A stretch of DNA of 64,000 bases from Eledone cirrhosa (Eukaryota): positions 330,832,001-330,896,000 of the forward strand of contig OZ024741.1 of the NCBI GenBank assembly GCA_964016885.1. Reading direction: 5' to 3'. A program made the translations under genes and the position numbers. How positions within the stretch are numbered: position 1 is the first letter of the stretch; every line of letters starts with the position of its first letter. The notes beneath the pieces are model-generated. The model made no database searches, was not told where the DNA came from, and saw only the letters and a program-made list of their open reading frames with translations. This document shows positions 6,001-64,000 of the stretch, one piece after another.

Positions 6001-6487
6001 AGACGTACAGTAGCATGCATATATATATACATATACATATATATATATATATATATATATATATATACATATGCATACAGGTACACATACATATATGCAC
6101 GCATCAGTTTAGCCTACGTTTATTATAACGCCGGCCGCTTTGTTCGTTTGTTTGTCAACAAAGCGAACAGCCTGAATTTATGCCATACGGTGTTAAGGCA
6201 ACCACGTCACCTTTTTGTTCAACACTGACACAGGAACGATGTACTAGTTTCAAGCTTGGTAGCTATCATCAGCACCGTTTACCCATCTGCCAGATAGTTG
6301 AACGTTCGAAAGTATATACTTTCCTTATGAAAATTAACGGCTGAGCAGCCTAATTTGCATATTGAGTGAGTTAAATCGGTCAGACATACCGAAAACGATT
6401 AGTTGAAAAAAAAAATGAAAACGGAATTTCATTTCTCACTCTTAGTATGGCACTTACTTAAATGTAAGTATGTATGTATACGTACAT
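1..6487 (-). repeat. Tandem array of ~499-509 bp units (~13 copies, runs off the left edge); retrozyme-like, one hammerhead per unit on the minus strand
   Basis: Marker ttgaaaaaaaaaatgaaaacgg recurs at 351, 850, 1356, 1855, 2360, 2866, 3365, 3871, 4378, 4887, 5394, 5902, 6403; units near-identical except internal (TA)n and A-run length. Confidence 0.97.
183..227 (-). ncRNA. Minimal type I hammerhead ribozyme (first of 13 copies in the left array)
   Basis: Minus strand: AACGGUG-CUGAUGA-U-AGCU(AACA)AGCU-U-GAAA-CUAG-UA-CAUCGUU; 7-bp stem I, intact core, palindromic stem III ACUAGU, GUA cleavage triplet. Confidence 0.88.
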
Positions 6488-7748
6488 TGCCTTAACACCG
6501 TATGGCATAAATTCAGGCTGTTCGCTTTGTTGACAAACAAACGAACAAAGCGGCCGGCGTTATAATAAACGTAGGCTAAACTGATGCGTGCATATATGTA
6601 TGTGTACCTGTATGCATATGTGTATATATGTATATATATATATATATATATATATATGTATATGTATATATATATGCATGCTACTGTACGTCTGTATACA
6701 TATATGTATGTACGTATACATACATACTTACATTTAAGTAAGTGCCATACTAAGAGTGAGAAATGAAATTCAGTTTTCATTTTTTTTTCAACTAATCGTT
6801 TTCGGTATGCCTGACCGATTTAACTCACTCAATATGCAAATTAGGCTGCTCAGCCGTTAATTTTCATAAGGAAAGTATATACTTTTGAACGTTCAACTAT
6901 CTGGCAGATGGGTAAACGGTGCTGATGATAGCTAACAAGCTTGAAACTAGTACATCGTTCCTGTGTCAGTGTTGAACAAAAAGGTGACGTGGTTGCCTTA
7001 ACACCGTATGGCATAAATTCAGGCTGTTCGCTTTGTTGACAAACAAACGAACAAAGCGGCCGGCGTTATAATAAACGTAGGCTAAACTGATGCGTGCATA
7101 TATGTATGTGTACCTGTATGCATATGTGTATATATGTATATATATATATATATATATATATATATATGTATATGTATATATATATGCATGCTACTGTACG
7201 TCTGTATACATATATGTATGTACGTATACATACATACTTACATTTAAGTAAGTGCCATACTAAGAGTGAGAAATGAAATTCCGTTTTCATTTTTTTTTTC
7301 AACTAATCGTTTTGGTATGCCTGACCGATTTAACTCACTCAATATGCAAATTAGGCTGCTCAGCCGTTAATTTTCATAAGGAAAGTATATACTTTCGAAC
7401 GTTCAACTATCTGGCAGATGGGTAAACGGTGCTGATGATAGCTAACAAGCTTGAAACTAGTACATCGTTCCTGTGTCAGTGTTGAACAAAAAGGTGACGT
7501 GGTTGCCTTAACACCGTATGGCATAAATTCAGGCTGTTCACTTTGTTGACAAACAAACGAACAAAGCGGCCGGCGTTATAATAAACGTAGGCTAAACTGA
7601 TGCGTGGATATATGTATGTGTACCTGTCTGCATATGTGTATATATGTATATATATATATATATATATATGTATATGTATATATATATGCATGCTACTGTA
7701 CGTCTGTATACATATATGTATGTACGTATACATACATACTTACATTTA
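6487..7748 (+). repeat. Inverted arm of the same array (~2.5 units), hammerheads at 6915-6959 and 7425-7469
   Basis: Reverse complement of the unit starts at cgtaca|ttgccttaac (6487) and runs into (TA)n at ~7748. Confidence 0.95.
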
Positions 7749-7908
7749 TATATATTTATATATATATATATTTATATATATATATATTTATATATATATA
7801 TATTTATATATATATATATATATATTTATATATATATATATTTATATATATATATATATATATATTTATATATATTTATATATATATATATATATATATA
7901 TATATATA

Positions 7909-60409: not shown

Positions 60410-61803
60410 CTAATGGAAACGGTTTAAACTACTAGAACTTTTAGGTCTATAATAGAAGAAAGAATTAGAAATGGCATGTGGACAGGAAGAAAATATCTCA
60501 GATTTTCTATTAAGCAATATGTTCCTAGAGAAAATTATAGAGTGGGTCTCTAGGATACAAAGATTACAGAATTTAGTATGTGTTGATAGGTGATTAGAGT
60601 GTGCTACAATTCGCCAATTTAGGCTATATGGTATACCAGCCCCTTTTAAATCCCAGATATGGTGTGCCAAAGAAGTAGAGTTCTTAAACTTGATATGCTT
60701 AAAATTAGAAATATGTGAATTAAACCTAGTTTTAAAAGTATTCGATGTGGAGCCTATATATGTGCTACAAGAAGAATTAGTCTTAACTTCACATGCATAA
60801 ACAATGTTCCTAGAGAGGCAGTGACCATTTAAAGAGCAGTTATTACTTAATCTACAGTTACACTTCCGGGTACTAGTGACTAGCTGATTACGCGATGCAT
60901 TATTCCTAGTGTTATTATTATTATAAGATAAGATCTGCTCGGGCGGTAAGTTATCAATAGAGCTATCTAGATTAGCAGTACGCAAAGAGGAGTAGCTATC
61001 CCTAATTTTCCTATTGTTAGTGCTAGCTAGGTGAGAATTAATGTTAGGGTGGTAGAGAAGGAGATTTTAATTACATTTTTATTAAAGATACCATGATATT
61101 ATTAATAGGAGGGAAATTTTTCTCTAAAATAGAAAAGAAAGACCTAGGGATATTAGTTGATACTTCATGATCAAAAGGCGGGTTAAAGTAAGTATTGAGT
61201 CTCCTCCTATTCCTACGTTTACTATCTCTACCGTAATGTGGTATCCTATTAATAGGATCCGGGTTAATACGAGGAACAGTTGAAGTGATACTATTAGAAG
61301 CAGTTAAAACATTACCTCTGGGTGAACGTTCAGAGCGCCTATCCTGTTCTCTAGAACCAAACTCGAAATGCGTACCGTTAGACTCACTATTTCGACTACT
61401 ATTTCGGTAGTTAAACTTAGGGTTCGGTTTGGATATATCTACAAGATTTCTATGATTCCTATATTTTCTTCTCCCATTCAAGGCCATATTATGGGATATT
61501 ACGTTACTGTGGGTGATCGGAGTCATTCCAAGGTCGTCCTCCTTAAAATGTATTTTACCAGAGTAACCAGAGTTAGCTAGGGCATTATTATAATTCTCTG
61601 CATGTGAATTAAATATTCCTATATCCTTAGAGAGTGTGGAGATTCTATTAGATACACCATTAATTATAGAACTAATCATAGATTTAGGGTGGTTGGAATT
61701 AGGGTTAACGTAAGAGAGTGTCTCGTTTGGTTTGTGGAAGGGTTTATAACTATTAGTGACCAAGTCTAATGTCACATCTAAAAAGTTGACTGCTCTATCA
61801 TTC
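60410..61803 (-). pseudogene. Penelope-like ORF remnant (RT thumb, linker, GIY-YIG), frameshifted
   Basis: ORFs 61071-61775 and 60410-60985. Confidence 0.88.
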
Positions 61804-64000
61804 TTATTCCATTTGAAGGGACCTGTAACATCTTTTAAGCAATTTTTAATATTAATCGATTTAATAAGGTTTTCTATTCAATTCTTTAGTTTAGAATAAT
61901 AATATCCTCTATATTTACATAACGACTTGTTATACCTACGTTTACTGTGCTTGTTTTTGTTTTTTGTTTTTGTTCTTCGTTTTATTTAATTTATTTTTTT
62001 ACTACCACTTGCTGTCTGTCTTCCTATCATCATCATCATTACTTCTTTACTTCTTTACTACCACTTGCTGTCTGTCATATTTGCATTTTCTGCTTTGCAT
62101 GTCTGTCTTCCTATATTAACCGCGTAAATATATCTTAAACATTTTCCATTGACTCTGTCTGCTATTATATTATGTGGATTAGCAGTATCGGTAGAGGGTC
62201 GGACGCCATGCTTTACAGCATAGTTACATCCCTTTGCGGTCTGAGTTCAAATCCCGCCGAGGTTAACTTTGCCTTTCATCCTTACAGGGTCGATAAAATA
62301 AAGTACCAGTAATGCACTGGGTACTTGCTGGCCTTGTGCCAAAAGTAGAAACAATTATATTATTTTATTTATAATTATTATTATAATATTAACATTGATA
62401 TATCATATTATTTCTATGTAATTGAGTTATAGGTATTAATATATGTCAGATATTTGAGGTACAATTTTGTAATATTTTGTAGTATTTTGTAATACTTTAT
62501 GAATGTAAACTGCATACACCTCTATATATATTTATTGTCAATATTTTATGTATTTATATATATATATTTTTTCAACATAACTTTAGTTTTATATGATATT
62601 TTTTTCTTACCCTTGAAAAACTTTATATACAATTTGTTGACATCAAATGATATGTATGATGTAGTTTTGTATGTTTTTTGATGTCTATATATTATATTAT
62701 TATTCTATTGGTTTTTTTTTTTTTGTATAGTTTATGCACACCGTCGGGGTGATTTTTATATTATAAAGAGTATATTTATATTTAAATACTTAATAAGTGT
62801 TAGTATGTGTTTGTGTAAATGTGTATATATATGGATATATATATATATACTTATATTAAGCTTTTTATTTATTATTATCCACTATATCATATTGTAATTC
62901 TAACATTATATTACCATGTTGTATTTAATGTATTTGTCTTATACTCTACTTTCAACGTAGGTTTGGTTTAACATATTACTCGCTTTCTTGCCCTACAGTA
63001 TATAATTTTTACTGCACACTTTTAGCTTTAGCATGCTTTTCCTTGATATCTTTCCTAAACTTTCATGGATATGAATTCCCTATTCTTCTGAGTTTTGTTT
63101 GTTCTGGCCGTTAATGCTTCTTGTCAATTTACTTGCCCTGATGAGTCCTTATTAATGGGACGAAACATTGTGGGCTAATAAAGACTTTTGATGTATTGAA
63201 GGCTTCTTTGTTTATTTTTATAATTTTTCGGCTCTGTTGTATTACATTGAGCTATATCTTATACTGTCATTTCTATAATACGACGAGTGTGTTTTACTCC
63301 AACGCACTCTAGTATTTTAATTCTTATACATATATATATATATATATATATATATATATATATATATATATATATATATATATATATATATATATATATA
63401 TATATATATATATATATATATATACATATATATATATATACATATATATATATATATATATATATATATATATATATATATATACATATCTATATATATA
63501 CATATATGCATATATATATATATATACATATATATATATATACATATATACATATATATATATACATACATACATACATATATTTATATATATATATATA
63601 TACATATATATATATATATATATACATATATATATATATATATATATATATATATATATACATATATATATATATACATATATATATTACTTTCTTTCGC
63701 CCTCTCTGTCATGTCAGCTAACACTTTCTCTCTACTGACCTCTTCCTCACACTTCCACTCACTCACTCACTGTTTCTCCCCTTCTCACTTCACCCCGTTC
63801 GCGACGAAAACAATTTCCTTCTTTCTTACATTTGGATTCATCTCGAAATGTCTTTTTTCTACGCGCTCATTTATTCACCCAGCTTATGCAGACAGAATAA
63901 CTATGTAGCTTGTGCCCTTCCTATCTACGGTTAGCTTCCCTCTTTGTTGTTTACTTGTCTCACTCGCTTTACGCGTTTTAATTGTCCTAATAACTTAATT

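Follow-up and report, generated by a model that had tools for sequence, protein, structure and literature searches.

Inverted pairs with outward-facing ribozymes

How an insertion can come to consist of two inverted copies of one sequence, set head to head, is the question raised by a 64,000-nucleotide (nt) stretch of the 3.0-Gb genome of Eledone cirrhosa (assembly GCA_964016885.1, contig OZ024741.1, positions 330832001-330896000; hereafter the window, numbered from its first base). A sequence-only reading had described eight fold-back insertions from seven families, each with a hammerhead ribozyme (HHR) on the minus strand of the left arm and on the plus strand of the right arm. All eight inverted pairs were recovered by self-BLAST, and the number of families was correct, the pairs at 6.5k and 39.6k belonging to one family. 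To judge from their motifs, on which the assignment rests, these pairs are 5'-truncated insertions of Penelope-like elements (PLEs) and their passengers (i.e. Hydra clade, Neptune-type and non-autonomous elements).

Counts were made in a genome sample of 1.764 Mb, made up of the window with flanks of 100 kb to its left and right and a further 15 blocks of 100 kb placed at round coordinates, a choice that leaned to small, TA-rich contigs. A strict HHR scan of this sample produced 207 matches as compared to none in reversed sequence. Rfam RF00163, with 74 candidates scored on the genome and 18 matches, was unsuited to a tally, and none of the 150 (of 617) Rfam matches listed for the window was a hammerhead, all being to microRNA models and below the gathering scores. 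Inverted pairs flanked by TA were also sought without regard to HHRs, which yielded 147 raw pairs, of which 117 were kept by eye and 116 were placed in 39 families. The 30 dropped pairs were cross-pairs, RTE pairs or microsatellite-centred and included 13 of the 17 symmetric ones. Loop counts refer to 115 pairs, an RTE-like pair and the pair interrupted at 53.9k having been left out. The 27k arm, used as a DNA query on the genome, gave no return, probably because the query words were too common, and sampled stretches were used instead. Kept pairs numbered 0-20 per 100 kb with a mean near 65 per Mb, a density that by rough extrapolation implies of the order of 100,000 such pairs genome-wide.

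The observation of a uniform divergent polarity was confirmed. Ribozymes within arms were on the minus strand in 25 left arms and on the plus strand in 26 right arms with none reversed, such that 51 of 51 were divergent (27 pairs, 12 families). Directly joined segments of one family were divergent in 160 cases and convergent in five, at least four of which were due to contamination of the segment library by short interspersed elements (SINEs). The proposed tally of adjacent opposite-strand HHRs, for which roughly equal numbers would have told against the polarity, gave 31 divergent and two convergent cases within families, both of the latter lying across TA runs. Neighbouring HHRs of different families were divergent in 18 and convergent in 30 cases. 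The reverse arrangement is hence absent within pairs, as had been claimed, whilst the convergent neighbours (30 different-family and two same-family) are separate insertions sharing a TA run. Controls within 3 kb were unbiased for both RTE (17 divergent, 22 convergent) and SINE (18 divergent, 22 convergent) copies, and no CR1 pairs were found in the sample. The idea of a general palindrome-generating mechanism was therefore not borne out, the process being specific to PLEs. As polarity, (TA)n targeting, hidden target site duplications (TSDs) and a one-sided tail have all been published, the headline of the earlier reading was already known. Moreover, polarity is predicted by every fold-back or twin-priming model and cannot select among them.

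Arm ends at two fixed sites

The informative feature, missed in the sequence-only reading, is that the two arms of a pair have different, fixed outer ends; polarity alone is uninformative. Among 506 family matches, 383 abut TA and 376 of these end at one of two family-fixed sites (26 families), with 199 ends at a distal site, beyond the tail, and 177 at a proximal site. When 372 ends were examined, 194 faced an end of their own family at the next TA run and nine matched another family. The partnered ends were of opposite type (proximal with distal) in 188 of 194 cases and of the same type in six, in a count that was automatic and involved no hand-dropping of pairs. One-tailed pairs made up 111 of the 115 curated pairs, a figure that may be biased upward by the hand-dropping of raw pairs, and four lacked tail asymmetry. 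All eight window pairs obey this opposite-end rule. The description of outer ends as abutting (TA)n accordingly holds for one arm per pair, whilst the other arm first runs through a tail of 38-150 nt; the left end of the 6.5k pair adjoins the (GAT)n tail of an RTE element, 3.19 kb upstream of the window, and not (TA)n.

The tail does not follow the longer arm. The tailed arm was 5'-longer in 33 and 5'-shorter in 34 of 67 decidable pairs, with both kinds occurring within ten families; among the remainder of the 115 pairs, 19 were symmetric and 25 were not assigned a longer arm. Within the window, the long arm is tailed at 41.9/44.7k and the short arm at 56.5/63.1k. At the proximal site the element sequence continues the TA pattern of the target for ~3 nt, the TA overlap averaging 3.2 nt as compared to 1.1 nt at random positions (n=66). 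We consider it probable that such pairs arise by staggered twin priming, in which a single RNA is copied from two preset sites, followed by end joining.

Junctions and coupled truncation

The two 5' truncations of a pair are often coupled. Loops of 30 nt or less were present in 60 of 115 pairs and, without the commonest family, in 45 of 94 pairs, whereas permutation gave 11.7 on average and at most 23. Examination of junction microhomology, as the sequence-only reading had suggested, found an overlap with a mode of 2 nt, and inserted or unexplained bases occurred at 18 of 57 assessed junctions. In seven insertions there is little if any sequence common to both arms; in one of them, an untailed arm of 166 bp faces a distal-only piece of 16 nt. 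Loops measure 0-2 nt in about 15 pairs, which is too tight for an intramolecular primer and so counts for twin priming. Cleavage by the HHR was rejected as the source of the 5' ends, with arm 5' ends lying 3-1960 nt upstream of the first HHR core and at no single position.

An alternative is a hairpin intermediate, in which self-primed fold-back on an antisense template, or snap-back of the cDNA, would generate a perfect palindrome, a staggered endonuclease (EN) cut would leave the tail, and later cruciform-driven central deletions would make spacers on either side. Antisense self-priming is the published proposal (PMC3846280). This origin directly explains the one-tail rule and is in keeping both with the near-perfect hairpins formed by over half of the pairs and with the clustering of commonest-family junctions in what is apparently a natural long hairpin of HHR stem II. 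Without later deletion, however, nested arms and a fixed tail side are predicted, as compared to the observed split of 33 to 34. Further, nine of 26 young pairs (arms at least 99% identical) already have loops of >100 nt, an entire insertion with non-overlapping arms can measure as little as 45 bp, palindromes whose arms reach 259 and 319 bp remain perfect, and the TA overlap at the proximal site fits target priming. We regard a hairpin intermediate as unlikely. A hybrid of the two routes, with both target ends priming at two sites and one cDNA snapping back such that its copy anneals to the second, short cDNA, accounts for coupled 5' ends, identical arms and a tail on either side, and a loop with 2-nt microhomology is the pattern of snap-back. 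The junctions with loops of 0-2 nt argue against it, and non-overlapping arms require no snap-back; it seems to us improbable.

Arm similarity bears on whether one RNA or two were copied. In 29 of 40 long-arm pairs the arms were closer to each other than to the best other sampled copy, with seven worse and four tied. Twin priming on two separate RNAs, one per subunit, is the loosest form of the mechanism first suggested for this locus, and the seven pairs for which another copy is closer than the partner arm are compatible with it, as is the existence of cross-family junctions, including Hydra-type joined to Neptune-type. With two RNAs, about half of the end pairs should be of the same type unless the subunits are specialised, as compared to the observed six of 194; coupled truncation is left unexplained, and cross-family cases are few as compared to about 160 same-family junctions. 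The use of two RNAs is thus highly improbable. Variants common to both arms and absent elsewhere were found in 16 of 115 pairs and comprised T>C (11) and A>G (7) at 18 of 35 sites, as compared to 21 of 109 differences specific to one arm; either RNA editing or structure within subfamilies could be responsible.

A bulged hairpin in the tail

Tails share a motif in which a stem of 4 bp (RCTC/GAGY) is followed by a bulge of 2 nt in its 3' strand and then by a variable upper stem-loop; the motif begins 2-10 nt into the tail in nearly all cases. It was scored in 19 of 37 families, whereas the reverse strand gave one and shuffled sequences 0.9 on average, in the same data as were used for motif discovery. 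Base pairs were counted by a motif-anchored script, since MAFFT did not align the hairpins because of their variable loop lengths. Across 22 families, the first pair was A-T in 11, G-C in eight and unpaired in three; the first upper pair was T-A in 12, C-G in nine and G-C in one; and the next pair was G-C in 14, A-T in six and G-T in two. As the search required pairing, the evidence lies in the variety of pair types and not in the pairing rate. All eight families with a Hydra-type open reading frame (ORF) carry the hairpin, and three Neptune-type families are without it save for a weak, chance-like match in one. The hairpin of Hydra-clade tails covaries across families. The hairpins at 63231 and 46003 were recovered by minimum-energy folding, whereas the one at 44799 was not.

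An independent check was performed on 79 metagenome loci of Hydra-type relatives. A strict scan detected the motif in four of 15 loci with a downstream HHR, and a relaxed scan, loosened after the strict result, in 18 of 41 loci as compared to four on the reverse strand and a shuffle maximum of five. By eye, the hairpin is clear in Hydra-2_Amil, Hydra-2_Ajap and Hydra-1_Ajap and imperfect in Hydra-1_Amil and Hydra-1_Crog; none was seen by eye in Hydra-1_Obim, whose sequence ends soon after the HHR. Four metagenome contigs show an inverted pair with a tail on one side only. The hairpin is a candidate cis signal and is conserved between this genome and Hydra elements published from coral and sea cucumber.

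A model of staggered twin priming

We infer the enzymatic steps of twin priming on one RNA from what was directly observed, i.e. the anatomy, polarity, two end sites, complementary pairing of ends, non-nested arms, microhomology and hairpin covariation. A dimeric RT-GIY-YIG protein (reverse transcriptase, RT) bound to RNA would nick both strands of (TA)n and, in Hydra-clade families, would likely bind the bulged hairpin between the two sites. One target 3' end would anneal via 2-5 nt to the UA-rich proximal site, whilst the other 3' end would prime 35-200 nt further 3' at the distal site, thereby giving rise to the tail. Both cDNAs would be extended in the direction of the RNA 5' end, with the front one displaced by the one behind it; they would often stop near the same break, although either may stop early. 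Microhomology-mediated end joining would then link the cDNA 3' ends, in some cases with the addition of short templated insertions. The suggestion that both ends of a cut in (TA)n prime cDNAs that are joined at their truncated 5' ends could not be drawn from polarity alone; it is supported by the non-nested arms, some without common sequence, by the 2-nt mode of microhomology and by the ability of a PLE protein to nick and extend both strands in vitro (PMC11167929).

Several observations weigh against this model. No recognisable partner end was found for 169 of the 372 ends. Microhomology lengths are inflated, as the extension used tolerates mismatches. Loops were larger in older pairs (median of 197 as compared to 47 nt; Spearman 0.22, p=0.06, n=75), a weak trend that fits later central deletion or secondary insertion and would also be in line with a hairpin intermediate. 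Asymmetric deletion of a palindrome can likewise yield non-nested arms and microhomology. The spectrum of shared variants does not favour a sense-only template and may be subfamily noise. Three or four cross-family junctions need two RNAs or later deletion. Neptune-type pairs with loops of at least 40 nt lean to a longer tailed arm (four to one, n=5). No empty site was seen in the sampled DNA, where target TA runs are long. In vitro, the start sites used by the PLE protein PAc did not differ between the two strands, and homology to the target was not seen (PMC11167929).

A stricter version, in which staggered twin priming is obligate in PLEs and a dimeric RT, positioned by the hairpin in the Hydra clade, uses both (TA)n ends and a single RNA, is put forward tentatively, as one that may well be right but that we stop just short of calling probable. 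If true, the inverted pseudo-long terminal repeat (pLTR), the tail on one side and the palindrome at the junction would all have a single cause, to which of the order of 100,000 small palindromes in this genome would also be due. In a TA-rich animal genome such as this, the process looks like a large source of short palindromes and, through them, possibly of cruciforms and double-stranded RNA. The end-pairing counts make the PLE mechanism testable in an existing in vitro system, the expectation being one proximal and one distal start per target.

Read evidence for the layout

Chimeric fold-back long reads or assembly error could in principle mimic inverted pairs. Read support comes from the joints of another family and not from reads spanning the eight loci, and the runs are not tied to this individual, which leaves some room for an artefact. 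Independent short reads, whose use had been recommended, contained fold-back joints for that family (12640-13026) in three other samples. In the raw Illumina data, opposite-strand joints lay near 12793-12813 at seven of the eight joint places listed, by a method that does not report joint orientation, and about 600-700 reads per run entered (TA)n at the proximal site. Reads placed on 41860-44930 were dominated by those of the SINE, with differences that were close to fixed. Identity between arms had a median of 98.1%, with 74 of 116 pairs below 99%; each family has its own fixed tail; later insertions interrupt a single arm and not its partner; and the same layout is present in contigs of other organisms. 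An artefact is largely refuted and its probability is, in our view, negligible.

Nature of the elements

Two of the eight pairs enclose 5'-truncated ORFs whose strand continues into one arm, with a GIY-YIG domain at 42873-43370 (plus) and an RT thumb piece followed by GIY-YIG at 61877-60410 (minus). Pfam matches to GIY-YIG were above cut-off for the ORF at 11196 and below it for those at 42873 and 60410. Long RT or RT-EN frames occur inside pairs of the 27k, 54k and other, Hydra-type, families elsewhere in the genome, and no ORF was found for the 6.5k/39.6k, 14.3k and 51k families. A type I HHR lies on the sense strand of the pLTR and is degenerate at 44.7k and 51.4k; none was found in the family at 11.2-13.0k. 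It is from the truncated GIY-YIG and RT ORFs, the Hydra and Neptune motifs and the retrozyme-like units that the pairs are taken to be insertions of PLEs and passengers.

Hydra-clade traits (i.e. a CxCx5C linker, no CCHH, and CxxC and CxH near the EN end) are present in the window ORFs at 60410 and 48641 and in three others, and in ORF 42873 a Y replaces the second C. The change of DKG to DKT was seen in the 702-amino-acid frame of a relative elsewhere in the genome (L108), the window copies being truncated before this motif; no full-length Hydra-clade copy was recovered in the sampled DNA. TA-abutting ends confirmed the (TA)n target of the Hydra-clade families. Elsewhere in the genome the 27k family has a PLE RT with a Neptune-type linker, and the 54k family a Neptune-type RT-EN whose EN matches the 11196 ORF at 37%. 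The latter reads as a CX2-5CxxC linker upstream of a GIY-YIG with CCHH (Neptune/Nematis-type motifs). The 27k, 54k and 11-13k families would thus be Neptune-type, with Neptune and Nematis not separable from the motifs read. The 6.5k/39.6k and 14.3k families consist of tandem non-coding units, each with a type I HHR, and appear retrozyme-like, as judged on repeat units and HHR alone.

Anatomy of the window pairs

The minus-left, plus-right arrangement held for all eight pairs wherever the ribozyme is intact. At 6.5k, the left arm (1..6487, minus) is an array of tandem ~505-bp HHR units, retrozyme-like and with no ORF, that has 19 HHR matches in total, extends to 3.19 kb upstream of the window and has the distal (tailed) outer end. 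The right arm (6487..7748, plus) has 2.5 units, with HHRs at 6922 and 7432, and a proximal end into (TA)n; the facing left-arm HHR is at 6272. RTE pieces beside this array were considered as a larger inverted duplication, which was rejected as three other copies are closer than their 98.6%. The 39.6k pair, of the same family, has a left arm (38630..39572, minus) that truly starts at 38630, with a distal outer end, an HHR at 38971 and 62 bp (39274-39335) inserted in its internal TA run, and a right arm (39573..39965, plus) with an HHR at 39739 and a proximal end; the segment beside the junction contains half an HHR. At 14.3k, an untailed left arm (13957..14303, minus) of a tandem ~318-bp family faces a right arm (14302..14767, plus) with an HHR core at 14568, a plus-strand match to the intact family elsewhere, and a tail of about 38 nt (14730-14767). 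The 27.05k pair consists of an untailed left arm (26791..27049, minus; HHR 26988), identical at 259 of 259 positions to the right arm (27051..27368, plus; HHR 27112, tail 27310-27368) across a 1-nt loop.

The untailed left arm of the 41.9/44.7k pair (41858..42455, minus) is identical to the right arm at 583 of 598 positions (97.5%). It faces a 5'-truncated, putative Hydra-clade PLE (42456..44941, plus) with a SINE at 42597-42793, the GIY-YIG ORF at 42873-43370, an HHR core at 44704 (CCGATGA, one substitution, with the ORF strand confirming its sense) and a tail at 44793-44941 with the bulged-hairpin motif at 44799-44832. The 50.8/51.4k pair has an untailed left arm (50735..51031, minus; 291 of 297 identical) and a right arm (51235..51596, plus; degenerate HHR at 51400, tail 51530-51596) separated by a 203-bp spacer; its orientation is only probably divergent, given its degenerate core (CCGAAGA, with a stem I of 3 bp) and the failure to find an intact copy. 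In the 53.9/54.8k pair, with its true centre at 53901-54021, an untailed left arm (53747..53945, minus) is 100% identical to a right arm (53985..54975, plus) that is interrupted by a CR1-like 3' fragment (~54022-54793) and has an HHR at 54803 and a tail from 54953, both inner ends being approximate.

The 56.5/63.1k pair has arms of 1426 bp at 99.4% identity. A 5'-truncated PLE, likewise assigned to the Hydra clade on its motifs (56450..61803, minus), has the untailed end, an RT thumb frame at 61071-61877, GIY-YIG at 60410-61066 and an HHR at 56540 found by the scan. The shorter arm (61804..63329, plus) has an HHR at 63138 read off the sequence, a 101-nt tail (63229-63329) and the bulged hairpin at 63231-63252. 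The same SINE copy is present in both arms (59337-59532 and 62174-62369) and so was likely in the template RNA. A 2.0-kb element bounded by long terminal repeats (LTRs) is inserted in the left arm (56950-58976); its two 366-bp LTRs do not differ, its target duplication is 4 bp long, it lacks a retroelement-like ORF, and it is apparently very young.

Other insertions in the window and sample

Further insertions were present in the window. A divergent insertion absent from the earlier description (45002..46114) has an HHR at 45377 (minus) and a tailed right end with the hairpin motif at 46003-46038. A small divergent pair (52668..53010) with tail-derived arms and a SINE in its centre is an exception to the one-tail rule. 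A heterologous head-to-head junction (10760..13026) joins an HHR family on the minus strand (10760-11135) to a 5'-truncated PLE of Neptune type by its motifs on the plus strand (GIY-YIG at 11196-11822), with 5-nt microhomology and both outer ends distal. Two more 5'-truncated Hydra-type PLEs on the minus strand (47455-49105 and 55200-56280) had no inverted partner detected. A Gypsy-type LTR retrotransposon (20244-25999, minus) has LTRs 94% identical and ORFs in several frames. An RTE-like element (28523-31627) has a 1034-amino-acid open frame (apurinic/apyrimidinic endonuclease, RT and PHD finger), and RTE 3' ends with (GAT)n tails, kin of this element, recur in TA runs at PLE ends.

In the sample, cross-family head-to-head junctions were found at G000:C9:20045392-20045950 and G000:C28:50061745-50062320, one of which joins a Hydra-type tailed arm to a Neptune-type untailed arm. 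The commonest family includes ~190-bp palindromic stubs that retain only the 3' half of the ribozyme (e.g. L001:1569-1780). In the assembly, an apparent palindrome of 18.3 kb, 99.6% identical, lies at G000:C4:100051995-100070288 (L036-L038), and a large tandem segmental repeat at G000:C14:25017000-25075000 has many retrozyme-like arrays and a recurring junction of two HHR families.

Comparison with known systems

In the twin priming reportedly described for L1 by Ostertag and Kazazian in 2001, the second target strand is said to prime a second cDNA on the same RNA, with a microhomology junction and an inverted 5' part; the second primer is said to use variable internal sites, and overlap between the two cDNAs is said to be lacking. 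In the present pairs, unlike L1, the second site lies at a fixed position near the first, such that the cDNAs would overlap and form a palindrome.

The feature is real and of a known kind. Head-to-head inverted repeats are the most frequent arrangement of PLEs (PMC3846280). Arkhipova et al. 2013 described a tail on one inverted pLTR and proposed self-priming on an antisense template with EN resolution (PMC3846280), which fits these data less well. Craig et al. 2021 described an inverted 5'-truncated copy, a one-sided tail and (TA)n targeting, called the mechanism undefined and stated the origin of PLE inverted repeats and tails to be unresolved (PMC8557442). The pairs resemble EN+ PLEs in these papers (PMC3846280, PMC8557442) in their head-to-head repeats, optional one-sided tail, palindromic junctions, HHR in the pLTR and (TA)n targets that hide TSDs. 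Unlike the published elements, the tail is here near-obligatory on exactly one arm, of 35-200 nt rather than 30-40 nt, and independent of the longer arm, in ~39 families at ~65 pairs per Mb sampled. The Hydra-type families share with the Hydra clade of C-terminal EN+ PLEs (Craig et al. 2021) the DKT, the CxCx5C linker, the lack of CCHH, the 3' HHR, the CxxC and CxH near the EN end and the (TA)n target, but are many and abundant rather than a few. 'Stem-loop' and 'hairpin' have no matches in the main text of that paper (PMC8557442). A literature search, with subscription journals mostly outside it, found no proposal of twin priming at two fixed sites for PLEs and no paper describing this tail hairpin. 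What is added to published work is the rule of complementary starts, the finding that arms are not nested, and the hairpin of Hydra-clade tails; the polarity is not new.

The nearest biochemical parallel to two start sites is PAc (Poseidon, Anolis; Frangieh et al. 2024), a predicted dimer that cleaves and extends both target strands, with two RT start sites bounding the tail and a stem-loop at the start region, all of which are likenesses to the model favoured here (PMC11167929). That paper does not, in its main text, tie the two start sites to inverted insertions, 'inverted' referring there to a blocking group (PMC11167929). Metazoan non-LTR retrozymes (bioRxiv 10.64898/2026.07.22.740005) resemble the non-coding families in that units of 300-500 bp are repeated in tandem, each unit has a type I HHR and an ORF is lacking. 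Unlike those retrozymes, the 6.5k, 14.3k and 39.6k families bear the same head-to-head, one-tailed scar as the coding PLEs.

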